A DNA stretch of 62,459 nucleotides from an uncultured bacterium (GCA_963839205.1 CAWITU010000006.1:1-62459); one strand, 5' to 3'; positions 14,374-61,726 are shown, numbered from the stretch's first letter. Translations and numbers: made by a program. The notes: a model not told the origin generated them from the sequence alone.

Positions 14374-14754
14374 ATGGATAAAGATAAAATCAAAAAAGAA
14401 AATCCGGAACTTTATCACGTCGCATATGAGAAGGGTACAGAGGCACCGTTTACTGGGAAGTACGTGCATAGCGAAGAAGATGGAATGTATAAATGTGCGG
14501 TTTGTGGGCAGGATCTTTTCAAAAGCGACGCAAAATTTGACTCTGGTACTGGCTGGCCAAGTTTTGATGAAGCGATTCCTGGAAGTGTAAAACCTGAAGA
14601 AGATAGTAGTCTTGGAATGAGCCGCACCGAAGTCATCTGTTCCCGGTGCGGCTCCCACTTGGGCCATCTCTTCAACGATGGCCCAACTAAAACCGGCAAA
14701 CGGTATTGCCTAAATTCCGTTTGCCTAGATTTAAAACCTGAATTGGACAACTGA
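14374..14754 (+). CDS. msrB: Peptide-methionine (R)-S-oxide reductase MsrB
   Basis: 126 aa with CxxC pairs, the GTGWPSF motif and RYCLNS catalytic Cys region. Confidence 0.9.
   Translation: MDKDKIKKENPELYHVAYEKGTEAPFTGKYVHSEEDGMYKCAVCGQDLFKSDAKFDSGTGWPSFDEAIPGSVKPEEDSSLGMSRTEVICSRCGSHLGHLFNDGPTKTGKRYCLNSVCLDLKPELDN
14619..14654. repeat. Intragenic GC-rich hairpin in msrB (11-bp perfect stem)
   Basis: GAGCCGCACCG, 14 nt, CGGTGCGGCTC, within the codons for SRTEVICSRCGS. Confidence 0.9.
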
Positions 14755-14784
14755 TAATTTTGCGATAAAATAAGGGCTTGTTTT

Positions 14785-14858
14785 GGGCCTATGGTATAGC
14801 AGTAACACGCGTCCATGGCATGGACGAGTCCGGGGTGCGATTCCCCGTAGGTCCACCA
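14785..14858 (+). tRNA. tRNA-Ala (anticodon GGC), CCA encoded
   Basis: Acceptor GGGCCTA/TAGGTCC with G3:U70, anticodon loop ATGGCAT, T-loop GTGCGATTCCCC, 3' ACCA. Confidence 0.85.
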
Positions 14859-15707
14859 TGAAAAAAATAAAATCAGTTGTATATGTTAGTGACCTAGATA
14901 GTTTTGTGTTCCCAAATGAGGCAGTTATGCCAATAACCGATATCGCTTTCCAACGAGCCATCGGTGTTTTTGAGGCGCTATTAGTTGTAAATGGAAAGAC
15001 AATCTCTCTGACTGATCATCTTAAAAGACTTAAACATTCAGCAAAGGCCTTGGGTATTCATTTTCCTTGGTCATTTTCATTTTTGGAAAAGAAAGCACTT
15101 GAAGGTATTAAAATTATTGGGCTTAAGGAAGTGGCTGTCAGAATTCTTATAACTGGTGGAGATAGTGAATATCTTTTGCCCTCTCAAAAACCAAGACTTT
15201 ATATTTGGGTCAAGGAAGAACCGATTCCAGAAGATCTTTATACAAAAGGGGTAGCTGTGCACATTTCTCAGCTTCATAGAATTGTTCCGAAAATAAAGTC
15301 CCTCAATTATGTTAACCGCTTCAGTTGCTTACGCTCATGCAAGGAAGCAGGGGTACTTTGATGCACTTCACACCGATATTTACGGAAATATTACTGAGGG
15401 GACCACATTCAATTTCGCTATTAGAGTTGGTGATACTTTGATTACCCCAAAGAAAAATACACTTGATGGTACAACGATGGCTAAGATAATTTATTTTGCT
15501 AAAAAACTTAAGCTAAAAGTAAAGAGAGAGCCAATCTCTCAAAAGGATGTAAGTAGAGCGGATGAGGCTTTCATAACCGGATCAATTAAGAAGGTTGTGC
15601 CGGTTGTGAGAGTTGATAAACAAAAGATTGGAAACGGTAAACCTGGCGAATATACAAAAGTATTGATGCAAAAATTTGATGACTATGTTTCAGGGAAAAT
15701 AAAGTGA
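14858..15707 (+). CDS. Class IV (branched-chain / D-amino-acid) aminotransferase, one frameshift near 15310-15360
   Basis: MKKIKSVVYV...PITDIAFQRAIGVFEAL and IKSLNY (catalytic Lys region). The C-terminal half is in ORF 15309..15707. The ATG shares its A with the tRNA CCA end. Confidence 0.75.
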
Positions 15708-16195
15708 CGAAATTCAACACTCAGAGAAAGATTATTTTGGGGATTATCTGCGTCATAATTGTTGGCTGTCTTCTTGGTTATACATATCATGTAGAAAAAA
15801 ATCCTGTAAAAAACATCCCTACAGGAATAGCCACTATCACCTTAGATCAATCAACGATTATGGCTTCAATTGCTAACACTGATGCATTAAGGGAAAAAGG
15901 GTTGGGTGGTGTAAATTCTTTGAATTCCAACCAAGGGATGTTTTTTATGTTTGATACCCCAGGACTATATGGTTTCTGGATGAAAGATATGCTTATTCCA
16001 ATAGACATGATTTGGTTGGATCAAAATCTTAAGGTGGTATATATAGAGTCAAATGTTTTGCCGTCGACGTATCCTGCCGTTTTTACTCCAACTTCATCTT
16101 CAATGTACGTACTTGAAACTCAAAGTGGTTTTGTGGAGAAAAATTCTATTAAGGTAGGCGATACAGCCAAAATTCTCTCAATAACTTCTAAATGA
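15704..16195 (+). CDS. DUF192-family protein
   Basis: N-terminal TM helix and the GMFFMF...FWMKDMLIPIDMIWLD pattern typical of DUF192/COG1430. Confidence 0.65.
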   Translation: MTKFNTQRKIILGIICVIIVGCLLGYTYHVEKNPVKNIPTGIATITLDQSTIMASIANTDALREKGLGGVNSLNSNQGMFFMFDTPGLYGFWMKDMLIPIDMIWLDQNLKVVYIESNVLPSTYPAVFTPTSSSMYVLETQSGFVEKNSIKVGDTAKILSITSK

Positions 16196-17287
16196 TTGCT
16201 ATCTTTCTATCTATCATATTTATAATACTGCTTTTAGGGCATACGCTCTTGTATTTTTTTGTTGTTAGTATTTTTTCTGTTTCGAATCCAATTATCCTAC
16301 TTGATTTGAAACTGCTAACGGTTCTTCTGTCGCTTACTTTTATTTTAGGATCTGCCGGATCATCTGTACAAAATAATCTTGTTACTAGATATTTTTATCG
16401 AGCGTCTGCGGTTTGGCTTTCATTTTTCATATATCTATTTTTTGGAGCGGTTATTTATTATATTGCTTTGATTTTTGGTGCATCTGTAATTTCGGGTCAG
16501 GTACTCTTAGTTTTAGCACTTGGTTTGTCTTTATACGGATTGATTCACGCTCAAATTATTAAAAAAGTTCATATCAAAATTAACTTACCTAATTTGCCAG
16601 AGTCTTGGATTGGTAAAAAGGCGGTATTTTTAAGTGATTTACATTTGGGGCAGGTGAGAGGTAAGAAATTTTTAGAAAAAATTGTCTCAGTAATTCAGAA
16701 GGAATCTCCTGATATTATTTTTATTTCCGGTGATATTTATGATGGGGTTAAGGTTGATGCTCAAGATATCGTCTCTCCATTTAGAAATCTGAGTCCAATT
16801 CATGGAATATTTTTTGTGATGGGGAATCATGAGGAATTCAGAGAGAATAATGGTTACTCTGAGGCGCTCCGTTCAAGTGGGGTCAAAATTCTTGAAGACG
16901 AACTTGTTGTTATTGATGGTAGTTCAAATTGTTGGAGTTGATTACAAAACTACCGAGAAAAGAAGTGATTTTGAAAAAGTACTCAGTTCGCTTCCAATTG
17001 ACGCCAACCTTCCTTCGATTCTATTGAAACATGTGCCGTCTAATTTGGATGTGGCCGAAAAGCGAGGCATAAGCCTCGGCCTTTTCGGCCACACTCACCG
17101 AGCCCAAGTTTTCCCTTTTAGTATTATTACCCACTTTGTTTACAAAGGTTTTGACTACGGTCTTAAAAAATTAGGGAAGATGCAGGTCTACACATCATCT
17201 GGGGTTGGAACTTGGGGACCTCCAATTCGAGTCGGTTCTAATTCAGAGATTGTTATCTTGAATTTCTCTATTGCAAAATCTGCTTAG
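16192..17287 (+). CDS. Membrane-anchored metallophosphoesterase, one frameshift near 16900
   Basis: Calcineurin-like motifs LSDLHLG, SGDIYDG, GNHE and GHTH across ORFs 16192..16941 and 16829..17287. Confidence 0.75.
17050..17093. repeat. Intragenic nested hairpin in the metallophosphoesterase gene (13 + 6 bp)
   Basis: TGTGGCCGAAAAG-CGAGGC-ataa-GCCTCG-gc-CTTTTCGGCCACA, coding ...VAEKRGISLGLFGHT... Confidence 0.9.
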
Positions 17288-17315
17288 ATGTGGTATTATA
17301 TATAGGTATTTAGCT

Positions 17316-17334
17316 CCTTGAAATTCAAGGTTTT
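17316..17334 (+). terminator. Short stem-loop plus TTTT after the phosphoesterase gene
   Basis: CCTTGAA-a-TTCAAGG followed by TTTT. Confidence 0.5.
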
Positions 17335-17503
17335 CACCATGGCCTAGAGTGGCTTTCAGTAGGCCTTTCTATGCTGTGGTGAAAGGTGACCTGTCTTTAA
17401 CAGGCAGGAAGATTCCTTAAACCAACGAGAAACAATCAGTAGGAGAACCAAAGATTGAAACTCACAGCACGAAAGTAAAACTGCAAATGAAAGGAACGCC
17501 ATT

Positions 17504-18247: not shown

Positions 18248-18401
18248 TCCTTGCACCTGTAACCTTGAATCCTTGTCCGCCATTTTTTTCTTTGGCGGAC
18301 ACACAAAAATCGTCACCTTTGCGCAAGCAGGGGTGGCGATTTCTTTTTTATAACTGTACCTTTAACATTGCTTATTTCTTATAATGTTTTATAATATTGA
18401 C

Positions 18402-18750
18402 TGGCTTGGATCGGGTAATCGCCCCTGCGTAGCTTTAGCGAAGCAGGGGAGGAAAGTCCGAACACTTGTCAGCCATGTTGGCTAGACAGCAGAGTAGCGG
18501 GTAACGCCCGTCTGGAGCAATCCAAGAGGTGCGAGCAGAGACGCCGGTATCCGAAAGGGTAGGGCATCCTTATGGGATGAGTCTGTTATAGCAAATAGAG
18601 AGTGAAACGGCAAAATCCTTACTTAAGTGCAAGGCCGTGCCCCAATGGGGAGTGCCGCTTGATTCCAAAAGTAATTTTGGAACTAGATAAATGATTATCC
18701 ATGTCTACTTTGGTAGGCTGGACAGAATTCGGCTTATAGATCCAAGTCCA
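18402..18750 (+). ncRNA. rnpB: RNase P RNA, bacterial type A
   Basis: P1 CTTGGATC/GATCCAAG and the conserved GAGGAAAGTCCG, GGGTAACGCCC and ACAGAATTCGGCTTATAG blocks. TATAAT at 18390-18395. Confidence 0.85.
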
Positions 18751-18756
18751 TACATG

Positions 18757-20535: not shown

Positions 20536-22335
20536 ATGGATTTGAAGCACATCAGAAATTTCTCAATAATAGCCCATATAGACCATGGTAAATCTACCTT
20601 GGCGGATAGGTTGTTGGAGGTGACCAATACTATTGAAAAACGCAAAATGCATGACCGGGTTCTTGATGATATGGAGCTGGAAAAGGAAAAAGGGATTACG
20701 ATTAAGATGCGTCCAGTTAGGATGGAATACCAAGGTTATATTCTCAATTTAATTGATACTCCAGGACATATAGATTTTTCATATGAAGTGTCGCGCGCCA
20801 TCAAGGCAGTTGAAGGGTCAATACTTTTGGTGGACTCGACACAAGGAGTACAGGCGCAAACGCTCACGACGCTCGGGATGGCGCGCGAATCGGGTCTTAC
20901 GATTATCCCAGTTCTAACTAAGATTGATTCTCCACTCGCTCGGGTTCCTGAAGCAACTGAGGAGCTAGCGGAACTTTTAGGTAGTTCGGAGGATGATGTT
21001 ATTTTAACGTCTGGGAAAACCGGAGAAGGCGTTGAAAAACTTCTGCAGGAACTTATAAAGAGAGTGCCGCCGCCCGAGAGTCCTTCGGACTCTCCCGTGG
21101 GCGGCGGTGGAAACGATTCTCGTTCTCTTATTTTTGATTTCCAATATTCAAATCATACTGGCGTAATTATTTTTGCACGAGTAATGGATGGAACTGTCGC
21201 TAAGGGCGACGCGCTTATTTTTAAAGCTTCTGGTGAGAGATTCACTGCTCTTGAAGTCGGAGTTTTTACGCCTGACGCATCACCGAGAGAATCTCTCTCT
21301 GCTGGGGAAATCGGTTATATTGTAACTGGTATTAAAAGACCAGGTATTGCTTCAGTTGGAGATACCGTCTCTGGAATTCGTTCGAGACTTCCAGCTCTAC
21401 CTGGCTACATGACTCCGTCACCAGTAGTCTGGGCATCAATCTATCCTGAAAGCCAAGATGATTTTGAAATGTTAAAACAGGCTTTGGGAAAACTTCGATT
21501 ATCGGATTCATCTTTTACTTACGAAGAAGAATCATCGGGAACACTTGGGCGTGGGTTTAGATGTGGTTTCCTCGGACTTCTTCACCTTGAAATTATTACT
21601 GAGCGTTTGAAAAGAGAATTTAATTTAACTCTTGTTGTTGCCACACCCTCAATTACTTATGAAGTTGAATATAGGAATGGTAAAAAAGCCACGATTTATT
21701 CACCGGCATTATTTCCAGAACAACACGAAATAGTTTCGGTGCAGGAACCGTTAGTTAAAGTTAAAGTTATTACGCCATCGGAATATATCAGCCCGATTAT
21801 CCAACTATTGTTTGATCACGAGGGTGAAGTTATCGAGACCAAAACTAAGCACGATAATCGCTCGGAGCTCACTATCAGGATGCCTCTTCGGGAACTTATG
21901 AGGAATTTTTTTGATGAAATAAAAAGTGTTTCGTCGGGTTTTGCTTCGCTTTCCTATGAATTTGATGGATCTCGCAAAGCAGATGTAACTCGATTAGATA
22001 TACTGGTGGCAGAAGAAATTGTTCCCGCATTTTCACGTGTGGTAGCAACTCGAAGAATTGAGATTGAGGCTGAGAAGGCTGCCGAAAATTTATATAAAGT
22101 TTTACCTCGCCAAATGTTTGCAACCAAAATTTGGGCAAAGGGTTTAGGAAGAATTATTTCTTCAAGAACTCTTCCTGCCATGCAAAAAAATGTTACCCAA
22201 CATATGTATGGAGGGGACAGAACTCGCAAAATGAAATTATGGAAGAAACAGAAAGAAGGGAAAAAAAGAATGAAGGCCGAGGGTACGGTCAATATTCCTC
22301 ACGATGTTTTTATTAAGATGATGAAAGGAGAATAA
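20536..22335 (+). CDS. lepA: Elongation factor 4 (LepA)
   Basis: 599 aa with GTPase motifs AHIDHGKST, DTPGH and TKID, plus the LepA C-terminal domain. Confidence 0.95.
   Translation: MDLKHIRNFSIIAHIDHGKSTLADRLLEVTNTIEKRKMHDRVLDDMELEKEKGITIKMRPVRMEYQGYILNLIDTPGHIDFSYEVSRAIKAVEGSILLVDSTQGVQAQTLTTLGMARESGLTIIPVLTKIDSPLARVPEATEELAELLGSSEDDVILTSGKTGEGVEKLLQELIKRVPPPESPSDSPVGGGGNDSRSLIFDFQYSNHTGVIIFARVMDGTVAKGDALIFKASGERFTALEVGVFTPDASPRESLSAGEIGYIVTGIKRPGIASVGDTVSGIRSRLPALPGYMTPSPVVWASIYPESQDDFEMLKQALGKLRLSDSSFTYEEESSGTLGRGFRCGFLGLLHLEIITERLKREFNLTLVVATPSITYEVEYRNGKKATIYSPALFPEQHEIVSVQEPLVKVKVITPSEYISPIIQLLFDHEGEVIETKTKHDNRSELTIRMPLRELMRNFFDEIKSVSSGFASLSYEFDGSRKADVTRLDILVAEEIVPAFSRVVATRRIEIEAEKAAENLYKVLPRQMFATKIWAKGLGRIISSRTLPAMQKNVTQHMYGGDRTRKMKLWKKQKEGKKRMKAEGTVNIPHDVFIKMMKGE
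20791..20888. repeat. Long-range 12-bp perfect inverted repeat in lepA enclosing 74 nt
   Basis: TCGCGCGCCATC (20791-20802) pairs with GATGGCGCGCGA (20877-20888). Confidence 0.85.
21067..21107. repeat. Intragenic nested GC hairpin in lepA (9 + 8 bp)
   Basis: CCGCCGCCC-GAGAGTCC-ttc-GGACTCTC-ccgt-GGGCGGCGG, coding PPPESPSDSPVGGG. Confidence 0.9.
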
Positions 22336-24222: not shown

Positions 24223-25426
24223 ATGTCGATATCTTTTAAGATTGAGAAGAAACTAAAAGGGAAACTTGGAAGAGCCGGCGTTTTAACGACTCCTCATGGG
24301 GAGGTTAAAACGCCGGCTTTTGTTTCTGTCGGAACCAAGGCGACTGTAAAGGCTATGACTCCTGAAGAAATGAGAGAAGCTAATGTTCAGATTCTAATTG
24401 CTAATACTTACCATCTATATTTGCAACCGGGTTTTGAGATTATCCAGAAAGCGGGCGGAATCCATAAGTTTATGAATTGGAATGGACCAATCATGACAGA
24501 CTCCGGTGGTTTCCAAGCTTTTTCACTCGGCGCCGCTTATGGAAAAAATATTAGTAAATTAGTTAAAGGTGGAGAAGAGTTACTGCTTACCGATCAAGAA
24601 GAAAAAAGGATGACGACGAGGCTTTCAAGATTTCTGGTATCGATGAAGGTGGAGTGATGTTTCGATCAATTATTGACGGAAGTGCACATTACTTCACACC
24701 TCAAAAATCAATTGAAATTCAGCATGCACTAGGCGCAGATATTATTTTTGCTTTTGATGAATGTACTTCACCTACTGAACCGATAAATTATCAAAAGCAG
24801 GCATTAGATAGGACACATCGTTGGGCAAAGAAGAGTTTGGAACATCATGAAAAACTAAAGATCGAGATCAAGCATTATTTGGAATTGTACAAGGAGGCAG
24901 GCATGAGGAACTTCGTAAAGAAAGTGCAAAGATAATTGGTGATATGAATTTTGCTGGTTTTGGTATAGGCGGTTCTTTTGCAAAGGAAGACATGAGTACT
25001 GCTGTTGAATGGGTGAATGGTATTCTTCCAGAGGGAAAACCTAGACATCTTTTAGGAATTGGAGAGCCAGCAGATCTTTTTGGAGCAGTTGAAAATGGAT
25101 GTGATCTATTTGATTGTGTGACACCTACTCGATTGGCTCGAAATGGTACTTTGTATACAAAAACTGGGAAAATAAATATTTTTAATGCTAAGTTTCGAGA
25201 TGATTTCTCGGAGCTAGATATTGGTTGTGAGTGTTATGCCTGTAAGAATTTTACGAGGGCATATGTTTCTCATCTTTTTAGATCTGATGAAATATTGGCT
25301 TCAACTCTAGCCTCAATTCATAATACTTATTTTTTGAATTCCTTAGTCGGAAAAATGAGAGAATCAATCTTGAATGATTCGTTTGAGGATTTTAAAAAAG
25401 AATTCTACTCCGAGTACGTTTCTTAA
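24223..25426 (+). CDS. tgt: Queuine tRNA-ribosyltransferase, two frameshifts (~24650 and the A-run ~24855)
   Basis: [33 protein letters not shown] (seen after a frame switch), GFGIGG, and the zinc site CxC..C...H across three ORFs. Confidence 0.85.
24273..24318. repeat. Intragenic hairpin in tgt (15-bp perfect outer stem + 4 bp)
   Basis: AGCCGGCGTTTTAAC-ga-CTCC-tcatgg-GGAG-GTTAAAACGCCGGCT, coding [17 protein letters not shown]. Confidence 0.95.
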
Positions 25427-25428
25427 GA

Positions 25429-27050
<1,622 letters not shown>

Positions 27051-27057: not shown

Positions 27058-27999
27058 TTAAACGGTTAAGGCTTCGGCACCGGCGGTGATCTCGGTGATT
27101 TCTTTGGTAATGGTTGCTTGGCGCGCTTTGTTATATGAAATGCTAAGAGATCCAATAAGCTCCTTGGCATTGTCTGATGCACTTCTCATCGCAACCATAC
27201 GAGAAGAATGTTCAGCGGCGTTGGACTCTAGGATACAACTGTAAATTTCAACATTTAAAAGTATTGGAATTATTTCTGCTAAGACAGCCTCAACTGATGG
27301 TTCAAAAAGATATTGTGCTTGTGTTTTTTTGTCAGTTTCTTTGAAAGCTTCTGGAAGTCCAGAGTAACGGCCAGATTCAGGAATAATATTTTTAATTATT
27401 TCCTCAATTGTTTTAACTTCAACTGGAATTAATTCTCTCTGAATGACTTGCTGTTTGAGTGCAGAAAGAAAGTTTGTATAAAAAATAATGACTTTGTTGT
27501 AGTTACCTGATAGGTAAGAGTCTTTAATAAATTCAGAGATTGGAACGGTTTTCTCGATTGAGGTTATGTCACCATTTCCAATAAATTCAGCTGGTACATT
27601 GTAGCCGCGGCGTTTAAAGTAGTTAACGCCGCGACGGCCGACAGCAACGATATCGGCCGTGTCTTTTTTGTCCGCGCCGCCAATAAATTTCTCGGCGGCG
27701 CTTATAACCTTACTATTCAAAGATCCAGCTAGTCCTTTGTCCGAAGTAATAACTAAAAGGCAGGTCTTACCAGTTTTTCTTTTTTGGAAGAATGGGGAGG
27801 CGGCAATTTCCCGAGCAGAAACGTGCGCTCGAATATTTTTGAGAACTTTGAGAGCGGACAATGCGTAAGGTCTCGCCGAAATTGCTGCCGCTTCACTCTT
27901 TCTCATTTTTACAGCCGAAACTGCTTCCATCGCTTTGGTAATTTGGCGAATATTCTTAGTTGCCTTTATTCGGTTTTGGATTACTCTTCCGGTTGCCAT
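27058..27999 (-). CDS. atpG: ATP synthase gamma subunit
   Basis: 313 aa, N-terminal ...IKATKNIRQITKAMEAVSAVKMRK and C-terminal ITKEITEI..GAEAL. Confidence 0.9.
   Translation of the reverse strand: MATGRVIQNRIKATKNIRQITKAMEAVSAVKMRKSEAAAISARPYALSALKVLKNIRAHVSAREIAASPFFQKRKTGKTCLLVITSDKGLAGSLNSKVISAAEKFIGGADKKDTADIVAVGRRGVNYFKRRGYNVPAEFIGNGDITSIEKTVPISEFIKDSYLSGNYNKVIIFYTNFLSALKQQVIQRELIPVEVKTIEEIIKNIIPESGRYSGLPEAFKETDKKTQAQYLFEPSVEAVLAEIIPILLNVEIYSCILESNAAEHSSRMVAMRSASDNAKELIGSLSISYNKARQATITKEITEITAGAEALTV
27606..27701. repeat. Three tandem GC hairpins in atpG (9, 8 and 8 bp)
   Basis: CGCGGCGTT/AACGCCGCG (27606-27633), ACGGCCGA/TCGGCCGT (27634-27660) and GCGCCGCC/GGCGGCGC (27674-27701). Confidence 0.9.
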
Positions 28000-32339: not shown

Positions 32340-34373
32340 ATGGGATTATTCAAATTATCGACAAAATTTAGCCCGGCCGGGGATCAGCCAAATGCAATCA
32401 AAGAATTGGTGGCTGGACTCAAAAAAGGTTTCCGAGAGGAGACTCTTCTTGGTGTGACTGGGTCCGGTAAGACTTTTACGGCCGCTAATGTTATTACTCA
32501 AATAAATAAACCGACTTTAGTTATTGCTCACAATAAAACACTCGCCGCTCAGTTGGCTCAGGAATATCGGGAATTTTTTCCAGAGAATGCTGTTCATTAT
32601 TTTGTTTCTTATTACGACTACTATCAGCCGGAAGCGTACATGCCGGTGTCTGATACATATATAGAGAAGGAGGCGATGATCAATGAAGAGATTGATCGCC
32701 TGCGTCACGCTTCGACGCAGGCGCTTTTGACTCGACGCGACGTCATTATCGTCGCGTCGGTCTCCTGTATCTATGGTTTAGGTTCTCCAGTTGAATATGA
32801 AAAAGTAAATTTGAGGATTGAGGTTGGACAGAAAATTGGCAGAGCCGAACTTCTCCGAAAATTAATTGATATTCATTTTGAAAGGACGAATGCTGACTTA
32901 GATCCTGGATTGTTTCGCGCTATTGGTAATTCAATAGAAATAATGCCCGTTAGTGAAAAAGTAATTTACAAAATTGATTTTGATGGAGAGAAAATTGGAA
33001 CAATTTTGAAAGTGGATGCGATTTCTAGAAGTATCATTGAAGAGATTAAAACTTTCTTCCTATTTCCAGCGAAGCACTTCATTACTAATGAAGACGAGAA
33101 AAACCGAGCTCTAAAAAGTATTAAAGAGGAATTGAATGACCAATTAGCCGTATTTGAAAAAGAAGGAAAGCTTCTTGAAGCTGAACGATTAAAACGCCGA
33201 ACTAATTATGATCTGGCTCTTATTAGAGAAGTCGGTTATTGCAATGGTATTGAAAATTATTCTAGACATTTTTCTGGAAAGGGCCCAGGTGAGCCACCAG
33301 ATTCACTGCTTTCATACTTTCCCTCGACTACGCTCGGGACAGGTCCAAACAAAAAGCAGGTTCCTGATTTTCTAACCATTATTGATGAATCTCACGTTAC
33401 AGTTCCTCAATTAAATGGAATGTACGCTGGAGATGCCTCCAGAAAGAAGACTCTTATTGAGCACGGATTTCGTCTTCCGTCCGCTGCCGATAACAGGCCA
33501 CTTAAATTTCCAGAATTTATGGAACGGGTTGGACAGATTATTTATACCTCAGCTACTCCAAGTAATTATGAAAGGACACAAAGTAAATTAATTGTTGAAC
33601 AAGTGATTAGGCCAACTGGTTTAGTTGACCCAATGATTGAGGTTAAACCAATTGTTGAAAAAGGAAAATATAAAGGACAGATTTTTGATTTTATTGAGCA
33701 AGCTGAGATTGAAATCAAAAAAGGTAATCGTGTCATTGCAACCACGCTTACTAAAAAAATGGCGGAGGATTTAAGTGAGTACCTCAAAGAGAAAAAAATT
33801 AAAGCTGAATATCTTCACAGTGATATTGAGACACTAGACCGCATCGAAATATTAACAAATTTTCGTAGAGGCAAATTTGATGTGCTTGTTGGGGTTAACC
33901 TTCTTCGTGAAGGATTGGATTTACCAGAATTAACTCTTATTGGAATTTTGGATGCGGACAAGGAAGGTTTTTTGCGTTCGGATACTGCTCTCATTCAGAC
34001 AATTGGAAGGGCGGCGCGTAATATCGATGGTCGCGTGATCCTATATGCCGACCACATGACAGGTTCGATGGAGCGATCGATCGGAGAAACCACGCGCCGC
34101 CGCACTCTTCAAACAAAATACAATAAAGACAATGGCATTACTCCAAAAACAATCATTAAGAAAATAAAAGATATCACTGAAGAGATGAGAACTGATCGCG
34201 AGAAGGCTGCAACAGAGCTTGCTCGCATTGATGAATCACGTTTTAAGAAAAATCCGACAAAACTTATCAAGGAAAAAGAAAAGCAAATGAATGACGCCGT
34301 TAAAGTTCTAGACTTCGAAACCGCCGCTCTAATTCGAGATGAAATTAGACTTTTGCAGTCTAAAAACAAATAG
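32340..34373 (+). CDS. uvrB: Excinuclease ABC subunit B
   Basis: GVTGSGKT, DESHVTVPQ, QTIGRAARN and the C-terminal UVR domain. Confidence 0.95.
   Translation: MGLFKLSTKFSPAGDQPNAIKELVAGLKKGFREETLLGVTGSGKTFTAANVITQINKPTLVIAHNKTLAAQLAQEYREFFPENAVHYFVSYYDYYQPEAYMPVSDTYIEKEAMINEEIDRLRHASTQALLTRRDVIIVASVSCIYGLGSPVEYEKVNLRIEVGQKIGRAELLRKLIDIHFERTNADLDPGLFRAIGNSIEIMPVSEKVIYKIDFDGEKIGTILKVDAISRSIIEEIKTFFLFPAKHFITNEDEKNRALKSIKEELNDQLAVFEKEGKLLEAERLKRRTNYDLALIREVGYCNGIENYSRHFSGKGPGEPPDSLLSYFPSTTLGTGPNKKQVPDFLTIIDESHVTVPQLNGMYAGDASRKKTLIEHGFRLPSAADNRPLKFPEFMERVGQIIYTSATPSNYERTQSKLIVEQVIRPTGLVDPMIEVKPIVEKGKYKGQIFDFIEQAEIEIKKGNRVIATTLTKKMAEDLSEYLKEKKIKAEYLHSDIETLDRIEILTNFRRGKFDVLVGVNLLREGLDLPELTLIGILDADKEGFLRSDTALIQTIGRAARNIDGRVILYADHMTGSMERSIGETTRRRTLQTKYNKDNGITPKTIIKKIKDITEEMRTDREKAATELARIDESRFKKNPTKLIKEKEKQMNDAVKVLDFETAALIRDEIRLLQSKNK
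32697..32759. repeat. Two tandem 10-bp perfect GC hairpins in uvrB
   Basis: CGCCTGCGTC-acgcttc-GACGCAGGCG and CGACGCGACG-tcattat-CGTCGCGTCG, within the codons for the conserved RLRHASTQALLTRRDVIIVASV. Confidence 0.95.
34010..34101. repeat. Long-range 10-bp perfect inverted repeat in uvrB enclosing 72 nt
   Basis: GGCGGCGCGT (34010-34019) pairs with ACGCGCCGCC (34092-34101), coding GRAAR and TRRR. Confidence 0.85.
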
Positions 34374-37366: not shown

Positions 37367-38659
37367 ATGATACAATATATTAATAATAAGTCAATGAGTT
37401 ATCCACAAGCCAATTTATCGATAAAAAACAAAGTTAATAAGCTCCCAGATACTCCTGGAGTTTACTTTTTTCTAGGTTCAAAAAAAGAAATACTTTATAT
37501 CGGCAAAGCCACTTCACTTAAAGACAGGGTGAAGAGTTATTTTTCAGGAGGACTATTTGAGGCTAGAGGTCCACTTATTTAAAAGATGGTCGGGGAAGCC
37601 AAAAGTATAGATTTTAAAAAGACTGATTCAGTACTTGAAGCGGTTTTGCTAGAAGCTGACTTAATAAAAAAATTCCAACCTAGATATAACACTAAAGAAA
37701 AAGACGATAAGAGTAATAATTGCGTTGTCATAACAAAAGAGTCATATCCGAAGATTTTAATTGTTCGTAAAAAAGACCTCACCGAACTTAAAGCTTCAGG
37801 TCAGAAATTTAAAGATGTTTTTGGCCCATTTCCATCGGCTGGAATTTTACGCGAAGCTCTAAAAATTATTCGAAAGATATTTCCATACCGTGATGAAAAA
37901 TGTGTTTCTTACGAGGAACAAATTAATAAGGGAAAAGTTCCAAAACCCTGTTTTAATCGACAAATTGGTCTTTGTCCTGGTGTTTGCACTGGTGAAATAT
38001 CAAAAATAGATTATGCAAAAACTATTAGAAATATAGAACTTATGTTTCAGGGTAAGAAAGATAGACTAATTCAAAAACTTGAAAGGGAAATGAAAGTTTC
38101 TGCTAAGAAAAGGGAATTCGAAAAAGCTGGTGAGGCTAGAAATAATATTTATGCACTAAAACATATCCAAGATGTTTCCTTGGTTAAGGTTGACGATTCT
38201 CCCTCTGTCCCGGCCGAAACTTTTAGGATTGAATCTTATGACATTGCTCATATGGGTGGAGGAAATACTGTTGGCGTAATGGTAGTTTTGGAAAATCGTC
38301 TTGCTAAAAAGGATGACTACAGAAAATTTCGGATTCGACAAAAGACAGGTGGTGATGATCTTGCTGCGCTCAGAGAAGTTATCACCAGAAGGTTGGGACA
38401 TCCAGAGTGGCCGACAGCTGATCTTGTTGTAATTGACGGCGGCCCGACCCAGCTTCGGGCCGCCGAGAGTCTTTTCCCAGAAAATACTAAAATAGTTTCG
38501 GTAGTTAAGGATGCAACCCATAAACCTGATCACATTCTCGGGAACCCAGAAATTATCAATAAATATAAGAAGGAAATCCTTCTTTCAAACTCTGAATCCC
38601 ACCGCTTTGCTATTGCGTATCATAGGAAAAGAAGGGGTAGTACTTTTAAAAAAGTGTAA
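37367..38659 (+). CDS. uvrC: Excinuclease ABC subunit C with an in-frame TAA at 37580-37582
   Basis: GIY-YIG N-terminus (PGVYFF...ILYIGKA) and ORF 37586..38659 are in the same frame, separated by a single stop (...[16 protein letters not shown]...). Confidence 0.85.
38437..38465. repeat. Intragenic GC hairpin in uvrC (11 bp)
   Basis: CGGCGGCCCGA-cccagct-TCGGGCCGCCG, coding [11 protein letters not shown]. Confidence 0.9.
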
Positions 38660-49929: not shown

Positions 49930-50530
49930 TTGGGCTTTCAAGAAGAGCTCACTATTCTCAAAAGACTTTCATCACCGATTAAAATTCAGGATTTTCTTGA
50001 TAGTTTGCCGATTAATTTTGAGAAAGGCGGGGAGACCTACATGTCTCCCCGCCGAGTTTTGCAAACTGGAAAAGCTCATTGCCTGGAGGGGGCACTACTT
50101 GCCGCACTGGCATTGTGGCTTCAAGGTGAAGAGCCACTATTACTTGATTTAAGAAGTGTTCCATCTGATATTGATTCATGTTGTTGCTTTGTATAAGCGT
50201 AATGGTTATTGGGAGCGATAAGTAAGACTAATCACTCAAGTCTTCGTTTTAGAGACCCAGTTTATAAAACTCCCCGTGAACTAGCTGTATCGTATTTTCA
50301 TGAATATTTCGTGAATGAGACTGGTAAGAAGACACTTCCGAAGTTATGCGAATCCATTTAATCTTAAGAAAATTAAAACTAATTGGATAACAGCCGAAAA
50401 AGAACTTTTTGAAATTCCGGAAATTCTTATGCGCAAAAACATTTTCCAATTTACCCTGAAGCAAATCAGAAATATATTCGTAAAGGCCGATCAAATGGAA
50501 AGAAGGGCGGGGAACTTATTGAATTTATAA
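49930..50530 (+). CDS. Transglutaminase-like / papain-fold candidate, frameshift near 50185
   Basis: GKAHCLEGALLAALAL (Cys) in ORF 49930..50196, then DIDHVVALYKRNGYWGAISK (His) after a frame switch. The tail is in ORF 50315..50530. Confidence 0.45.
50026..50053. repeat. Intragenic GC hairpin (11 bp) in the transglutaminase-like gene
   Basis: GGCGGGGAGAC-ctacat-GTCTCCCCGCC. Confidence 0.9.
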
Positions 50531-50567: not shown

Positions 50568-51518
50568 ATGTCAAAGAAAATTCTATTATCTGGAGTAAAA
50601 CCAACCGGCCGACCTCATATAGGCAATTATTTTGGTGCCATGAAGCAGTTTGTTGATATGCAGGATAAATTTGATTGCTTCTATCATGATTCCTGATTAT
50701 CATGCTCTAAATACTATTCAGGATGGTAAGCAGATGAAAGAACTCATACTTGATTTGGCATTAGATTATCTCGCTATTGGACTTAATCCAGATAAAGTAA
50801 ATATCTTCAAACAATCCGATGTGTTAGAACATACGGAGCTTGCTTGGATTTTTGATGCCATTACAACGATGCCATATTTGATGAGAGCGCATGCCTTTAA
50901 GGATGCTGAAGCAAAAAATAAAGAAATAACCGTTGGGACTTTTAATTACCCAATGCTTATGGCTTCGGATATTCTTCTCTATGATGCGGACGTTGTGCCG
51001 GTTGGCCTTGATCAGAAACAGCATGTTGAAATTACTCAGAGATACTGCCGAAAAATTTAATAGAATTTTTGGGGAAGTATTCAAGTTGCCAGAGGCTTTA
51101 ATTATGAAAGAAGTTGCTGACTATTCCTGGTATCGATGGTCAAAAGATGAGTAAAAGTTATAACAATACCATTCCACTTTTTGCGACGGATGCAGAAATT
51201 GAAAAAGCTGTAATGGGTATTGTGACTGATTCGTCCGGTGAGTTGCCAGTCAATGTTTACAATATCCACAAACTTTTTAGAGACACAGAATATTTGGATA
51301 AGTTGTACTCTGAAAATAAGGGTAAGTACAAAATATTAAAGGAGGCCTTGATTGCAGATTTGAAAGCTTTGATTTCACCGCTTAGAGCTAATAGAGCTAA
51401 ATTTGAGAATGATATTGAGAAAGTGAAAGAGATTTTGGAAAAGGGAAAAGCGGCCGCGCAAGGTCGCGCGGCCGCCAAAATGGCTTCTGTCCGCTCCAAA
51501 ATTGGCGTAAGTTTTTAA
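50568..51518 (+). CDS. trpS: Tryptophan--tRNA ligase, at least 3 frameshifts
   Basis: [24 protein letters not shown] (HIGH) and KMSKS at ~51140, in pieces across frames 3, 1, 2 and 3. Confidence 0.85.
51450..51475. repeat. Intragenic GC hairpin in trpS (10 bp, all G/C)
   Basis: GCGGCCGCGC-aaggtc-GCGCGGCCGC, 43 nt before the stop codon. Confidence 0.9.
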
Positions 51519-55444: not shown

Positions 55445-56354
55445 CAGTGAGGTAATGGTTGTTGGTGGAATTATGATTGCACTCGCTCTCATTATTTCTT
55501 ATGCCAGTGAAGTAGTTAATTGGAAAGCGACAGCCGCAATAACTTCTTCAAGCACAGTTCTCGCTGATAACATCCCTAACCCATTTGATAATGTTTCTAT
55601 TACAGCTCAAAGTGCCTATGTTTATGATTTGAAAACAGGGACGATGCTTTACGAAAAAGATGCTGATGTTGTAAGACCATTAGCATCGCTTACAAAACTA
55701 ATGACTGCACTAGTTGCTTCAGAGGAACTTTCAACATCGAGCGTTGTGACTATTACTCAAGAGGCATTGGACCAAGATGGTTCTAACGGCCTTGTTTTGG
55801 GTGAGCGCTTCACCTTCAAAAACCTCCTGAATTTTACACTTATGGTTTCATCTAATGCCGGTGCCGCCGCCATCGCCGAGGCGGCGGCGCCGACTAGTCC
55901 CACCGAATTCATTACCGACATGAATTCTAAAGCTAACGAACTCGGGTTCAACTCACTTCTTTTCTATAATCCAACTGGTCTGGATGTTTCAACTGCTGAA
56001 TCCGGTGGATATGGTTCTGCTAAAGACATTAGTAATTTATTTATTTATATCCTTAGTCATAATCCAGACATTCTTTCAAACACAAAATATCCTAGTGGCA
56101 GTTTTACATCGTTAAATGGAATCGTGCACACTATTTCTAACACAGACGTCGCTATACCACACATCACTGATATAATTGCTTCCAAGACAGGTTATACTGA
56201 TTTGGCTGGTGGAAATGTTATTGTTACTTTTGATGAAGATATCGGACATCCGATACTTATTACGATCCTTGGTTCAACATTTGATGGTAGATTCACAGAT
56301 GCCGAGACATTAGCATCAACCACAATGGCTTATTTCACTTCCCATGATAACTGA
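55425..56354 (+). CDS. Serine-type D-Ala-D-Ala carboxypeptidase (PBP5-like)
   Basis: SxxK (SLTKLMT), SxN (SSN) and KTG (SKTGYT) motifs, with an N-terminal TM anchor. Confidence 0.8.
   Translation: MFRQKISSEVMVVGGIMIALALIISYASEVVNWKATAAITSSSTVLADNIPNPFDNVSITAQSAYVYDLKTGTMLYEKDADVVRPLASLTKLMTALVASEELSTSSVVTITQEALDQDGSNGLVLGERFTFKNLLNFTLMVSSNAGAAAIAEAAAPTSPTEFITDMNSKANELGFNSLLFYNPTGLDVSTAESGGYGSAKDISNLFIYILSHNPDILSNTKYPSGSFTSLNGIVHTISNTDVAIPHITDIIASKTGYTDLAGGNVIVTFDEDIGHPILITILGSTFDGRFTDAETLASTTMAYFTSHDN
55861..55890. repeat. Intragenic GC hairpin in the D-Ala-D-Ala carboxypeptidase gene (9 bp, 11 with one G-U)
   Basis: GCCGCCGCC-atcgccga-GGCGGCGGC, coding AAAIAEAAA. Confidence 0.85.
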
Positions 56355-58568: not shown

Positions 58569-59699
58569 ATGAAAATTTTACTTACAGGAGGCGGAACCGG
58601 AGGACATTTCTATCCGATTATTGCTATTACAGAAGAATTAATTCAATTATCTAAAGAGAAGAAGCTCTTAAAGCCAAAAATTTATTACATGGCTGATTCT
58701 CCATACAATCCAAGAATTCTTTTTGATCACGATATAATTTTCAAAAAAGTTTCAGCAGGGAAGATGAGGAGGTATTTCTCTGTTTCAAATTTCTTTGATT
58801 ACTTTAAAACCGCTTTCGGATCAATGAGTGCTGTATGGCAGTTGTTCTTCCTTTTTCCAGACGTAGTTTTTGGAAAGGGTGGATATTCCAGCTTTCCTGC
58901 TGTCTTTGCTGCTAGAATTCTGGGTATTCCAGTAGTGATTCACGAATCTGATAGTGAACCGGGTAGAGTAAATGCTTGGGCAGGGAAATTTGCAAAGCGC
59001 ATCGCTCTTTCATATCCAGAAGCAGCAAAATATTTTCCAGAAGGTAAAACAGCTTTTACTGGTAATCCTGTTAGGTCTGAGATAAAAATTCCTGCAACAA
59101 GTGGTGCCAAGGAATATTTGAATCTTGAAACAGGGGTGCCAACGATTGTCGTCCTCGGTGGATCTCAGGGTAGTAAAAAAATAAACGATGTCATTTTAGA
59201 TGCTTTGCCTGATTTGGTTTCAAAATATCAGGTTATTCATCAAACTGGTGTTAAAAATTTTAAAGAAGTCAGGGGGGTAGCAGACTTAATTCTTCAATCA
59301 AACAGTAATGCTTCGCGATACAAGCCATTTGATTATTTAAACAATTTAGCGATGCGTATGGCCGCAGGGGCGGCAGATTTGGTTATTTCACGATCTGGGT
59401 CAACTATATTTGAGATTGCAATTTGGGGGCTTCCATCAATTCTCATTCCAATTCCAGAATCTGTAAGCCATGATCAAATAAAAAATGCTTTTAGTTATGC
59501 TTCAACTGGGGCGGCGGAAATTATTCAGGAAAACAATCTTACCCGTGAGGTTTTTGTAAGTGAAGTTGAAAGGGTTATGGGGAATACTGCACTTAAGGAC
59601 AAAATGCGTGCGGCGGCTCGGGCTTTTGCAAAGCCCGACGCCGCACGCAAAATCGCTGAGCAGATTATTGAGATTGCTCTGACTCACGAAACTGACTAA
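58569..59699 (+). CDS. murG: UDP-GlcNAc:lipid I GlcNAc transferase
   Basis: GGGTGGHFYP N-terminus and the VISRSGSTIFE motif. Confidence 0.9.
   Translation: MKILLTGGGTGGHFYPIIAITEELIQLSKEKKLLKPKIYYMADSPYNPRILFDHDIIFKKVSAGKMRRYFSVSNFFDYFKTAFGSMSAVWQLFFLFPDVVFGKGGYSSFPAVFAARILGIPVVIHESDSEPGRVNAWAGKFAKRIALSYPEAAKYFPEGKTAFTGNPVRSEIKIPATSGAKEYLNLETGVPTIVVLGGSQGSKKINDVILDALPDLVSKYQVIHQTGVKNFKEVRGVADLILQSNSNASRYKPFDYLNNLAMRMAAGAADLVISRSGSTIFEIAIWGLPSILIPIPESVSHDQIKNAFSYASTGAAEIIQENNLTREVFVSEVERVMGNTALKDKMRAAARAFAKPDAARKIAEQIIEIALTHETD
59605..59649. repeat. Intragenic nested hairpin in murG (11 + 8 bp)
   Basis: TGCGTGCGGCG-gct-CGGGCTTT-tgc-AAAGCCCG-a-CGCCGCACGCA, 50 nt before the stop codon. Confidence 0.95.
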
Positions 59700-59753
59700 T
59701 TGTCGTTTGACGTTGACAGGAAAGCCATCCACCTATAGAATTCTGTCTTAATT

Positions 59754-60221
59754 ATGAACGACGAAAAAGAATATATATCAAAAGAGAAGTTTAATGAATT
59801 AACAGTTGAGCTCGATCATCTTAAGAAAGTTAAGAGACGAGAAGTGGCTGAAGATCTTGAGCATGCCAAGTCACTAGGTGACTTATCTGAGAACGCTGAG
59901 TATCAGGAAGCTAGACAAGCACAAGCTGAGACTGAAGTTAGAATTTCCAAAATCGAGGCTATTCTTAAGAATGCAGAAATTGTTATTTCTCATCATTCAA
60001 CTATTGCTGAAGTAGGTTCAACTATTACAATTCAAAAAGAAGGCGAGGGTAATGAAAAGATTTACAATCTCGTAGGTAGCGAAGAGGCTGATTCAGCTTC
60101 TGGTAAAATTTCTATTAATTCTCCACTGGGAACCGCTCTTCAGGGCAAGAAGGCTGGTGATGCGTTCATCCTATCAACTCCATCAGGTAAGATGTCTTAC
60201 AAGGTTGTTAATATTAAGTAG
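59754..60221 (+). CDS. greA: Transcription elongation factor GreA
   Basis: GDLSENAEYQEAR coiled-coil tip and the C-terminal SINSPLGTAL..K..GD. Confidence 0.9.
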   Translation: MNDEKEYISKEKFNELTVELDHLKKVKRREVAEDLEHAKSLGDLSENAEYQEARQAQAETEVRISKIEAILKNAEIVISHHSTIAEVGSTITIQKEGEGNEKIYNLVGSEEADSASGKISINSPLGTALQGKKAGDAFILSTPSGKMSYKVVNIK

Positions 60222-60262
60222 GCTTTTATAAAGCTCTATTTCAGTTTATACTAAGAGTACCA

Positions 60263-61726
60263 ATGTCTTTTGATGATATCCGTTCCGAAAGAGTAAAAAA
60301 ATTAGAGAAATTAAAAAGTCTCGGTATTAATCCATACCCAGCGGAATCTTCAATCTCTATAACCTTATCGGAATTAATCACTAAATTTGATTCTATTTCG
60401 GCCGCTGGAAAATCAGAAACAATCGGCGGCCGCCTCATGTCCAAGCGTGGTCAAGGTGCTATTGTCTTTGCTGATTTGTATGATGGTACTGCGAAGTTTC
60501 AAGTATTACTTAAAAAAGATATTCTGGGGGAAGAGCAATTTTCTATATTTACTGACACAACTGATGTCGGAGACTTTATGGAAGTTTCCGGTACATTGTT
60601 TTTAACTAAAACTGGTGAGAAGACCCTTGAAGCCAAAAGTTGGAAAATGCTTTCAAAGAGCCTTCGTCCGCTTCCAGAGAAATGGCATGGCCTCCAAGAC
60701 ACCGAGGAGCGCTTTAGAAGACGCTATTTGGATGTCTTGATGAATCATGACGTCAGAGACAGATTCGTCGTAAGATCGAAGATAATCTCCGCTATCAGAA
60801 GTTTTTATGATAACAAGGGTTTTATTGAAGTTGAGACCCCACGCCTTCAATCACTTGCAGGTGGTGCTACAGCCTTACCATTCGTTACCCACCACAATGC
60901 GCTAGATATTGATTTTTATCTCACAATTGCTCAAGAGTTATATTTGAAGGAACTTCTAGTTGGAGGGTTCACTAAAGTCTATGAAATCGGCAGAAAATTC
61001 AGAAATGAAGGGATTGATACAACTCACAATCCTGAATTTACCATGCTTGAATCAAATGAAGCTTATGTTGATGCGAAAGCTCAGAGAGAATTTATTGAAG
61101 AATTATTTAAAAAATTAGTTAAGAATATATTTGATACTGAATCAATTCAATACGATGAGGTATCAATTGATTTTGCCCCAAAGTTTGAAGTTATAACTTT
61201 TTACGACTTGATTAAGAAGTTTGCAGATGTTGAAAATCCAGAATCACTTTCTCAATCTGAAGCATTTGATAAAGCCGTTTCGCTCGGTGGTAAAGTAGGG
61301 AAGACAGATTCGCTAGATAAATTACTTGATGTGATTTATAAGAAAGCTTGCAGACATCATTTGATTGAACCAACTTTTATTATTGAATATCCTGAAGCCT
61401 TTAATCCATTTTCAAAACGCAAAGCTGATAATCCATCAATAATTGATAGATTTCAGTTAGTTGTTGGGGGTCTTGAAATAGTGAATGCTTTTTCAGAATT
61501 GAATGATCCAATTGATCAGGCTGTTCGTTATGAAGAGCAAAAAAAAGAAAACATGGTGAGGGCGAAATTTCTCCATCTGATAAAGAATATCTTGAGGCAA
61601 TGGAATACGGTATGCCACCAATGGGAGGGATTGGGATCGGAATTGATAGGGTAGCGATGCTTTTCACAAATTCTAAAAATATTTCGCGAAGTCATTTTGT
61701 TTCCAACGCTCCGACCTAGGGCGTAA
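60263..61726 (+). CDS. lysS: Lysine--tRNA ligase (class II), two frameshifts near the 3' end
   Basis: OB-fold N-domain and class II motifs (FRNEGID..HNPEFT). The tail ...[44 protein letters not shown] is recovered by frame switching. Confidence 0.9.
60399..60432. repeat. Weaker intragenic GC inverted repeat in lysS (7 bp)
   Basis: CGGCCGC, 20 nt, GCGGCCG. Confidence 0.6.

Follow-up and report, generated by a model that had tools for sequence, protein, structure and literature searches.

Stable GC-rich stem-loops with conserved pairing inside core genes of an AT-rich CPR bacterium

Why would an AT-rich bacterium carry perfect GC-rich hairpins inside its core genes? The question arises from a 62,459-nt contig (the window, meaning the whole stretch analysed) of a member of the Paceibacterota/Parcubacteria (CPR) whose genome is AT-rich. 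A sequence-only reading had reported such hairpins in conserved housekeeping coding sequences (CDSs), and the window was scanned exhaustively for perfect inverted repeats. About 18 very stable GC-rich stem-loops lie inside core protein-coding genes (Table 1), and Pfam confirmed the gene names. The hairpins were found where they had been placed, except at lepA 20791, where there is no stem of at least 6 bp, and at uvrB 34010, where only a 6-bp stem exists, at 34028; the scan added two in msrB, at 14659 and 14695. Two geometries recur: a 9-12-bp stem with a 6-8-nt loop, and a nested form of 41-46 nt with 16-20 bp and a 2-4-nt bulge. Minimum free energy (MFE) z-scores range from -3.7 to -8.5. Stem GC content spans 0.53-1.0, so that the description of the stems as almost pure G/C fits most but not all of them. 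The hairpins occupy no common position within their genes, and no window hairpin has an internal mismatch with at least 4 pairs on both sides. The longest substring common to any two is 9 nt of low-complexity GCC/GGC; therefore, they are not a dispersed repeat or MITE, in agreement with the earlier view that they are unrelated in sequence and not REP copies. No direct-repeat family was found among them, and an Rfam gathering scan returned RNase P RNA and tRNAs only, the hairpins matching no RNA family.

Table 1. Stem-loops within coding sequences of the window and their state in the sister genome or in relatives (positions counted from the first nucleotide of the window).
Gene	Position	Strand	Structure	Comparison and context
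msrB	14619..14654	+	11-bp perfect stem, GC 0.82, 14-nt loop (scan)	Kept in sister: two C->U opposite G (G.U), one change at loop-closing pair
msrB	14659..14686	+	10-bp stem, 8-nt loop (scan)	Sister stem identical, one loop substitution
msrB	14695..14725	+	9-bp stem, 13-nt loop (scan)	Sister stem identical, two loop substitutions
metallophosphoesterase	17050..17093	+	Nested, 13-bp outer + 6-bp inner, 2-nt bulge, 4-nt loop; -34.6 kcal/mol, z -8.5	19/19 pairs conserved in sister; loop AUAA -> GUUA
lepA	21067..21107	+	Nested, 9-bp outer + 8-bp inner, UUCG-containing loop; -35.5 kcal/mol	Outside coverage of sister contigs; right arm within lineage-specific 7-aa insertion (about 21100-21120), partner conserved PPP codons
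tgt	24273..24318	+	Nested, 15-bp outer + 4-bp inner helix, one U.G; -36.6 kcal/mol, z -8.5	50 nt into CDS, then UUUUGUUUCU; missing from six relatives; window arms carry I->L, H->T, D->E, I->V replacements
atpC	25469..25511	-	Nested, 10-bp outer + 6-bp inner, 3-nt bulge; -33.2 kcal/mol	Missing from relatives L087 and L082, whose residues differ here
atpC	25523..25551	-	Second, weaker: 6 + 3 bp (+ strand coordinates), 1-nt bulge	
atpC	25563..25580	-	Third, weaker: 7-8-bp palindrome GACGGTGA/TCACCGTC (read from sequence)	
atpG	27604..27635	-	9-bp perfect stem (27606), G.U extension on sense strand only	
atpG	27634..27660	-	8-bp perfect stem; sense strand only, + G.U + one pair	Arm includes K->R replacement
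atpG	27674..27701	-	8-bp all-GC stem; sense strand, + G.U + one pair	Sense-strand 3' arm includes 2-aa (GG) insertion
uvrB	32697..32723	+	10-bp stem, 7-nt loop; encodes RLRHASTQA	Sister stem 100% conserved, 2 loop changes; relative L082 has identical peptide via other codons, no hairpin
uvrB	32733..32759	+	10-bp stem, 7-nt loop; encodes RRDVIIVAS	
uvrC	38437..38465	+	11-bp stem, GC 0.91, 7-nt loop	Five relatives without hairpin
unnamed ORF (49930-50196)	50026..50053	+	11-bp stem, 6-nt loop	
trpS	51450..51475	+	10-bp all-GC stem, 6-nt loop	Stop codon 43 nt downstream; sister has one C->U (G.U; Ala->Val), 3 loop changes
S11 D-Ala-D-Ala carboxypeptidase	55860..55891	+	12 pairs with one U.G (9 bp perfect), 8-nt loop	U.G pair in window; sister all Watson-Crick
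murG	59605..59649	+	Nested, 11-bp outer + 9-bp inner, 2-nt bulge, 3-nt loop; -36.9 kcal/mol, z -7.4	Stop codon 50 nt downstream
lysS	60399..60432	+	9 pairs incl. one U.G (7 bp perfect), 16-nt loop	G.U position swapped between window and sister

The claim that these hairpins are real and far above chance was borne out, since neither codon nor dinucleotide shuffles reproduced the stems. The whole window holds 14 stems of at least 9 bp with at least 75% GC, versus 0 in 30 dinucleotide shuffles. Within CDSs there are 11 perfect stems of at least 9 bp and at least 75% G+C, whereas 40 synonymous-codon shuffles averaged 0.125, with no more than 1 in any; for stems of at least 10 bp the counts are 8 and 0. 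Controls that preserve local GC3 were likewise exceeded. When codons were randomised within their G/C-ending class, folds became much weaker, the observed ones falling in the top 0.1-2.6% for 14/17, and the ratio of observed to best achievable MFE for the encoded peptide has a median of ~0.94. AT-rich stems were at chance level (10 vs 6.3 expected) and are broken in the sister genome described below. Density is also exceptional among CPR bacteria, with 2.2 GC-rich stems per 10 kb here and 0.06 in 26 low-GC CPR loci (161 kb), ~36-fold fewer.

The arms became complementary through G/C-ending synonyms, together with tolerated replacements and short in-frame insertions. In uvrB, pairing is made purely by synonymous G/C-ending codons, with changes spread over both arms; each third position pairs with the first position of the opposite arm and no amino acid was changed. 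A single conversion tract would therefore have altered amino acids there. The proposal that pairing is achieved by synonymous choice thus holds for uvrB but is incomplete elsewhere: tgt, atpC, atpG and uvrC have amino-acid replacements in their arms, in each case including clusters of neighbouring replacements, and in-frame insertions supply one arm in lepA (+7 aa) and atpG (+2 aa), the opposite arm being conserved coding sequence. Orthologue alignments of uvrB, tgt and uvrC are gap-free across the whole hairpin, and in more distant relatives identical or similar peptides are encoded by sequence that forms no hairpin.

Since divergence from a sister species, the pairs have been almost frozen, with loops and nearby silent sites changing freely. 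The comparison is throughout one of two genomes, the window and a single sister with ~80-85% nucleotide identity (15-20% diverged; three ENA contigs) that was assembled independently from another sample. The same hairpins occur at the same codons in both, with different loops and flanks. Third codon positions differ at 5/80 sites in stems (6%), compared with 12/28 in loops (43%), 2679/7022 in other CDS (38%) and 38/81 in GC-rich patches that form no hairpin (47%); the constraint on stems is significant against both background CDS and these patches (Fisher's test; p = 1e-10 and 3e-9). For G/C third positions, 2/62 changed in stems versus 1156/2157 in the background (p = 1.5e-17). Orthologue comparison had been suggested as a check, and the sister indeed keeps the pairing, with one compensatory change: murG 59624/59632 is T-A in the window and C-G in the sister, and the change on the right side replaces K by R. 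In the rnpB terminator at 18756, A-T has likewise given way to G-C. The stems behave here like a conserved cis-acting RNA structure, with slower change at paired than at unpaired sites and with pairing kept when changes occur. One hairpin was gained or lost between the sisters (L086:12633, sister-only, versus window 16497).

The form of the tolerated changes bears on the molecule in which pairing acts. In the two genomes, all one-sided stem changes (6/6) leave C/U facing G on the sense strand, and none gives A.C. In atpG, which is on the minus strand, 3/3 hairpins extend via G.U on the sense strand only, and a minus-strand gene of the sister has two sense-strand G.U pairs of the same kind. Because the tolerated non-Watson-Crick pairs are sense-strand G.U in genes on either strand, the pairing appears to matter in RNA and not in DNA. 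Numbers are small in both tests of this asymmetry: the G.U extension test gave 4:1 (p = 0.19), and the asymmetry of sister changes, corrected for opportunity, gave p ~0.1.

The explanation that we prefer, with our confidence evenly balanced, is that these are lineage-specific, structure-defined and selectively maintained stem-loops superimposed on coding sequence, most likely acting in the sense mRNA. Such a hairpin would work by its shape, either blocking or offering a grip to an enzyme that is processive or specific for double strands; candidate partners are the translating ribosome, RNA polymerase at a hairpin-dependent pause, an exoribonuclease and, for the five nested 16-20-bp hairpins, RNase III. 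As a first guess, such hairpins may regulate how the mRNA is processed or degraded, or how fast elongation proceeds. A short-range template-switch (fold-back) mutation probably seeded some of the arms in a single step. Several points count against action in mRNA. The stems are almost perfectly Watson-Crick, a 'binary' perfection that is uncommon in RNA helices under selection. Within a CDS, hairpins of -25 to -37 kcal/mol are expected to hinder translation. The variable position within genes, the absence of a U-tract outside tgt and the negative Rfam scan count here too. Inserted or cluster-replaced arms, as read from the alignments, appear to be explained by templated mutation no less well than by selection acting site by site. 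Elsewhere, 'binary' perfection has been put forward as an argument that the arms correct each other at the DNA level (PMC6649704).

The main alternative, which we regard as possible but somewhat unlikely, is that these are DNA-level, self-perpetuating 'coding palindromes' with no RNA function. Frequent short-range template switching at stable GC-rich quasi-palindromes would create perfect repeats and keep their arms mutually corrected, owing to a lineage-specific replication or repair quirk, for example the loss of a nuclease that keeps fold-back synthesis in check; protein selection would filter the outcomes, and the repeats would persist as neutral or selfish features. This account is consistent with the near-total arm perfection and absence of internally mismatched versions, with the arms made by insertion or by clustered replacement, with the restriction to genus level at a density ~36-fold above relatives, and with hairpin turnover between the sisters. 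It also has precedents (PMC5941160, PMC6649704, PMC8794818): conserved perfect inverted repeats in Proteobacteria have been ascribed to template switching (PMC5941160), which makes and maintains hairpins (PMC8794818). In a survey of perfect inverted repeat density across 118,019 genomes, the CPR groups Campbellbacteria and Kaiserbacteria rank top (PMC13155455). However, AT-rich perfect repeats are here neither in excess nor conserved, and a DNA-level process would thus need to act on GC-rich stems only. In addition, G.U-type mismatches stay uncorrected, the sister msrB hairpin having three changes, and the tolerated mismatches track the sense strand, minus-strand atpG included, a pattern not expected of a replication-strand process. 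The unaltered amino acids of uvrB likewise argue against conversion. An mRNA-level element and a hairpin-perfecting mutational process were both among the options raised by the sequence-only reading, and these are the two explanations still standing.

The remaining candidates carry less weight. Latent intragenic terminators or pause hairpins, active only when translation is uncoupled from transcription and serving as a polarity or coupling device, are improbable, and they would be a sub-case of action in mRNA rather than an independent explanation. The simple class (10-11-bp GC stem, 6-7-nt loop) does share its geometry with post-stop-codon hairpins at 986, 37043 and 52237, and the tgt hairpin is followed by UUUGUUUCU and uvrB 32697 by CUUUUG. 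Nevertheless, most CDS hairpins lack a sense-strand U-tract, a U-run occurring only at tgt 24273 (and weakly at uvrB 32697). Intrinsic terminators and mRNA-stabilising hairpins, including REP-type 3′ barriers, resemble ours in their GC-rich 9-12-bp stems and short loops, but all sites here are inside ORFs and have no consensus. A 3′ barrier upstream of the stop codon would give non-stop mRNA. It is very unlikely that the hairpins are a by-product of GC-rich or rare codon clusters, or of Ala/Gly/Arg/Pro-rich segments that are self-complementary by chance. Many arms encode A, G, R or P runs and about half of the GC-rich 30-nt patches form no hairpin, but the weaker folds after class-preserving randomisation and the divergence of the non-hairpin patches (47% vs 6%) largely refute this origin, and the murG compensatory change also speaks against it. 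Equally hard to sustain is an origin as small mobile palindromic insertions, MITEs included. Rickettsia palindromic elements, yeast mitochondrial GC clusters and byp elements are hairpin-forming and relatively GC-rich in AT-rich genomes, as here, and the small in-frame insertions in lepA and atpG would suit such a source. These elements are, however, mobile, with a common sequence and as insertions relative to orthologues (byps being untranslated), whereas our hairpins have no consensus of the kind that unites such families or REP/BIME copies and are mostly gap-free recodings of conserved residues. The lepA and atpG insertions provide one arm only, the other being conserved coding sequence, and for most sites the gap-free alignments (uvrB, tgt, uvrC) refute insertion. 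Homopolymer frameshifts occur in tgt, trpS and other genes of the window contig. Such errors would fit an artefact of assembling or polishing error-prone long reads, which we consider extremely improbable given that the independent sister assembly carries these hairpins at matching codons and differs in loops and flanks.

A stem-loop family of this kind is undescribed in bacteria. The view that no described system explains the hairpins nevertheless overlooked the coding palindromes of Nematomorpha (hairworm) mitochondria, reported in 2019 (PMC6649704), and the literature on template switching (PMC5941160, PMC8794818). Template switching at quasi-palindromes (PMC5941160, PMC8794818, PMC8604942) likewise yields an excess of perfect short inverted repeats that rises with arm length and is conserved across species, and multinucleotide changes and small indels that lengthen the match between arms, within coding sequence too. 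Those studies concern mostly non-coding repeats or rare events in yeast genes, and none describes a dense GC-rich stem family confined to the housekeeping CDSs of one lineage; the composition-independent excess typical of the process, which would include AT-rich repeats, is absent here. The nearest analogue is the hairworm system. In both, perfect inverted repeats that are wholly intragenic and unrelated in sequence lie in functional genes, both arms are translated into conserved protein, code degeneracy is used for pairing, and gain and loss are lineage-specific with near-binary perfection; for Nematomorpha, template switching or conversion has been suggested to maintain the repeats actively. 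The host here is a CPR bacterium and not a mitochondrion, and arms are 8-15 bp (16-20 bp when nested) compared with up to 284 bp. In contrast to the hairworm palindromes, the stems are strongly GC-rich although the genome is AT-rich, the constraint on pairs relative to loops is directly seen between two species, and the tolerated sense-strand G.U mismatches point to RNA.

Full enumeration of perfect inverted repeats across the window recovered 18 of the 20 hairpins listed in the sequence-only reading (lepA 20791 and uvrB 34010 failed) and identified two additional hairpins in msrB. Stems of at least 9 bp with 3–30-nt loops numbered 34, compared with 8.8 in dinucleotide shuffles, and 14 stems of at least 9 bp had a G+C content of at least 75%, compared with none in 30 dinucleotide shuffles. 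As a stricter control, which the sequence-only reading had called for, synonymous codons were shuffled within each gene. The excess persisted, with 11 GC-rich stems within CDSs versus 0.125 in the shuffles, and 8 versus 0 for GC-rich CDS stems of at least 10 bp; AT-rich stems were at chance level (10 observed versus 6.3). When the G/C- or A/T-ending class was held for each codon, the real encodings still folded far better than the alternatives, and at the median they attained ∼94% of the best folding energy available to the peptide under any choice of synonymous codons. Predicted RNA energies of the hairpins were −24 to −37 kcal/mol, with z-scores of −3.7 to −8.5. The hairpins are real, and their origin as a by-product of GC patches or rare codons was rejected by the class-preserving codon control and by the non-conservation of GC-rich patches without hairpins.

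The longest sequence that any two hairpins had in common was 9 nt of GCC/GGC low complexity, and with nothing further in common among the copies, a dispersed repeat was rejected. What recurs is geometry. The simple form has a stem of 9–12 bp and a loop of 6–8 nt, resembling the hairpins just past stop codons in this genome, and the nested form has 16–20 bp with a small bulge. Since this geometry recurs, it hints at recognition by shape. The hairpins had no common position within genes, and the codon phase of pairing showed no clear preference (4, 5 and 3 hairpins across the three phases). Most sites were negative in a U-tract test and a clear U-tract was present only at tgt; therefore, the CDS hairpins are not canonical terminators.

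The sequence-only reading attributed the pairing to synonymous codon choice, which holds for uvrB, where five third positions have shifted to G or C, each of which now pairs with the first base of a codon in the opposite arm, without any amino-acid change. Elsewhere the arms involve replacements, namely I to L, H to T, D to E and I to V in tgt, K to R, R to V and D to N in atpG, and several each in uvrC and atpC. Insertions also contribute. In lepA, the right arm comes from seven residues (GGGGNDS, 21100–21120) inserted between the G domain and domain II. Two CPR LepA sequences lack this insertion, and the DNA encoding it reverse-complements conserved Pro-Pro-Pro codons. In atpG, a 2-residue GG insertion makes one arm. 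The synonymous-choice claim is therefore only partly right, and the force building the hairpins is strong enough to shift protein sequence.

We compared the window with a sister genome, represented by three contigs (ENA sample ERZ25039472) that align to ∼23 kb of it at 78–85% nucleotide identity, a span that excludes the atp operon and the tgt, lepA 21067, uvrC and 50026 hairpins. AtpD/AtpC homologue searches, one with an E-value cut-off of 1e-150 that may have concealed fragmentary sister matches, and a JGI metagenome scan returned only relatives of up to 84% identity. An exact 46-mer had no match among GTDB genomes, and exact look-up did not recover the window's UvrB. All 12 helices within the covered span were present in the sister. 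Of the third codon positions, 5/80 had diverged within stems, against 12/28 within loops and 2679/7022 across the rest of the CDS, so that silent-site divergence in stems is lowered about six-fold. Where the window has G or C at a third position, the base had changed at 2/62 stem sites versus 1156/2157 sites elsewhere (P = 1.5e-17). GC-rich non-hairpin patches had diverged at 38/81 third positions (P = 3e-9 versus stems), and therefore it is pairing, not GC-richness, that is conserved. One murG pair had changed on both sides, from T-A in the window to C-G in the sister, with the right-hand change replacing Lys by Arg, and the RNase P terminator hairpin showed a compensatory A-T to G-C change. 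The AT-rich stems of the window were mostly broken in the sister. One hairpin was found in the sister only, indicating turnover.

Further GC-rich stems of 10–12 bp lie in sister genes outside the window span (16100–16130, 16493–16519 and 19220–19250 on contig L085; 12245–12276 on contig L086), and a GC-rich 11-bp stem occurs within atpA (6759–6788) of L082, a relative's locus with the same atp-uvrB-uvrA-uvrC synteny and a UvrB 80% identical to that of the window. The trait therefore spans the sister genome and may extend at low density to the wider clade. In uvrB, L082 encodes an identical RLRHASTQA and a near-identical RKDVIIVAS with different codons, and the hairpin is absent. The atpC, tgt, lepA, atpG and uvrC hairpins were likewise absent from the relatives compared. 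Across 26 low-GC CPR loci (161 kb) a single GC-rich stem was found, equivalent to 0.06 per 10 kb versus 2.2 in the window. Low-GC uvrB-region loci from many phyla had no GC-rich stems, except for L002, which has three (7966, 8196 and 13383); it was rejected as a second case on the two stems checked, 7966 and 8196, both of which are intergenic and upstream of uvrB.

The stems are strikingly perfect in Watson–Crick terms. The hairpins might be coding palindromes that maintain themselves at the DNA level without a function, and this perfection fits arm-to-arm correction, as proposed for coding palindromes of hairworm mitochondria (PMC6649704) and conserved perfect repeats in E. coli (PMC5941160). 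Several observations make this explanation the less likely one. In each of the six one-sided stem differences between the genomes (lysS being read manually), the sense strand has C/U facing G, with no A·C, although the counts are small and the opportunity-corrected P value is ∼0.1. Each of the three minus-strand atpG hairpins gains two pairs through G·U available only on the sense strand, and two sense-strand G·U pairs occur likewise in a sister gene on the minus strand. A census of pairing extensions gave G·U to A·C at 4:1, which at these small counts is not significant alone (P = 0.19). This sense-strand asymmetry is suggestive of RNA. In addition, AT-rich repeats were not in excess and the sister msrB hairpin holds three uncorrected changes, which argues against a generic, efficient conversion. 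No window hairpin had an internal mismatch flanked by at least 4 pairs on each side, hence a census of single-mismatch hairpins provided no G·U to A·C ratio, and sense versus antisense folding energies were uninformative because the stems are Watson–Crick perfect.

On balance, we read the hairpins, at about even confidence, as sense-mRNA stem-loops that are selectively maintained; template-switch mutation probably seeded some of the arms. Candidate readers of their shape would be RNA polymerase, the ribosome or exonucleases, to which the stems could present a pause or roadblock, and RNase III is a candidate for the nested form. More tentatively, a genus-level CPR lineage could have evolved a genome-wide, shape-only layer of near-maximally stable GC-rich hairpins in housekeeping mRNAs by means of synonymous and near-synonymous changes and small insertions. 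This layer would be selected for a role in RNA metabolism or elongation control without a described bacterial counterpart, possibly offsetting machinery lost from the reduced genome. We found no description of such a hairpin family in the literature on bacteria, and the closest analogue, the hairworm palindromes, is mitochondrial. If selection acts on the pairs in mRNA, they form a dense, clean natural case in which secondary structure takes precedence over codon preference, and at times over the protein sequence, in core genes unrelated to one another, and would reveal an unrecognised mechanism of regulation or RNA handling in the CPR bacteria, which are poorly understood. If they are maintained in DNA, they would be the first bacterial counterpart to the hairworm palindromes and a tractable case of fold-back template switching shaping genes. 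Under either reading, they can mislead analyses of codon usage, selection (dS) and gene transfer. In a 2026 survey, the CPR groups Campbellbacteria and Kaiserbacteria ranked first among all phyla for density of perfect inverted repeats, a result left unexplained there (PMC13155455); the hairpins may partly explain the high ranking of some CPR groups.

The housekeeping genes in the 62,459-bp window (39.5% G+C) are those of a candidate-phyla-radiation bacterium. The closest GTDB species representatives to its UvrB were at most 73% identical, the top matches being Parcubacteria/Paceibacterota MAGs, and affiliation in a large protein collection agrees with this placement. Pfam confirmed msrB, lepA, tgt, atpC, atpG, uvrC, the S11 carboxypeptidase and murG. 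Rfam matched RNase P RNA and five tRNAs, and none of the hairpins. Frameshifts at homopolymer runs interrupt several genes, including tgt and trpS, and the sister assembly is similarly fragmented. Conserved genes are split at tgt 24223–25426 (breaks near 24600 and 24860), trpS 50568–51518, 16829–16941 and 34994–35055, as frameshifts at A-runs or overlapping ORF pieces. Genetic code 4/25 (UGA as sense) was rejected for the broken ORFs, since it does not mend these breaks; therefore, the contig resembles the product of error-prone long-read assembly, unless the broken genes are pseudogenes. The splits point to long-read consensus errors over recoding, with pseudogenisation as the alternative. 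Mobile-element genes (Pfam) sit in flanking islands, and the three islands contained no CDS hairpins of the GC-rich type.

Other features of the window
Feature	Position	Match or composition	Remarks
Mobile island, split serine recombinase	3982–5321	Pfam: resolvase, recombinase, zinc ribbon	
Tandem repeats, two × 271 nt	11403–12030	74% identical; Gly-rich GGTGGNGG repeat run	Within 897-aa He_PIG/polysaccharide-deacetylase/peptidoglycan-binding protein
GC-rich segment, ∼1.1 kb	17267–18363	247-aa ORF (17504–18247), no Pfam match	Between phosphoesterase gene and rnpB; no counterpart in sister contig L086 (alignment gap)
RNase P RNA	18403–18791	Rfam, 119.7 bits	Followed by 12-bp hairpin and U-run; true start of the MurJ ORF, called at 18691, is probably further downstream
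Perfect 12-bp GC-rich palindrome	30787–30811	1-nt centre; minus strand then UUUUUC	Within atp operon, start of minus-strand ORF 30442–30813; possible intra-operon site for processing or stability
Mobile island, second recombinase	40168–41240	Pfam	Adjoins tRNA-Ala
Mobile island, IS30-like transposase	42070–43071	Pfam: HTH_38, rve	
Perfect 36-bp palindrome	43416–43451	18-bp arms, A-run/T-run flanks	Between convergent genes; probably a bidirectional intrinsic terminator
Contig end	61834–62427	∼65–74% G+C vs 39% overall; 197-aa minus-strand ORF, no Pfam match	Strong predicted folds are due to composition, outside the CDS hairpin group
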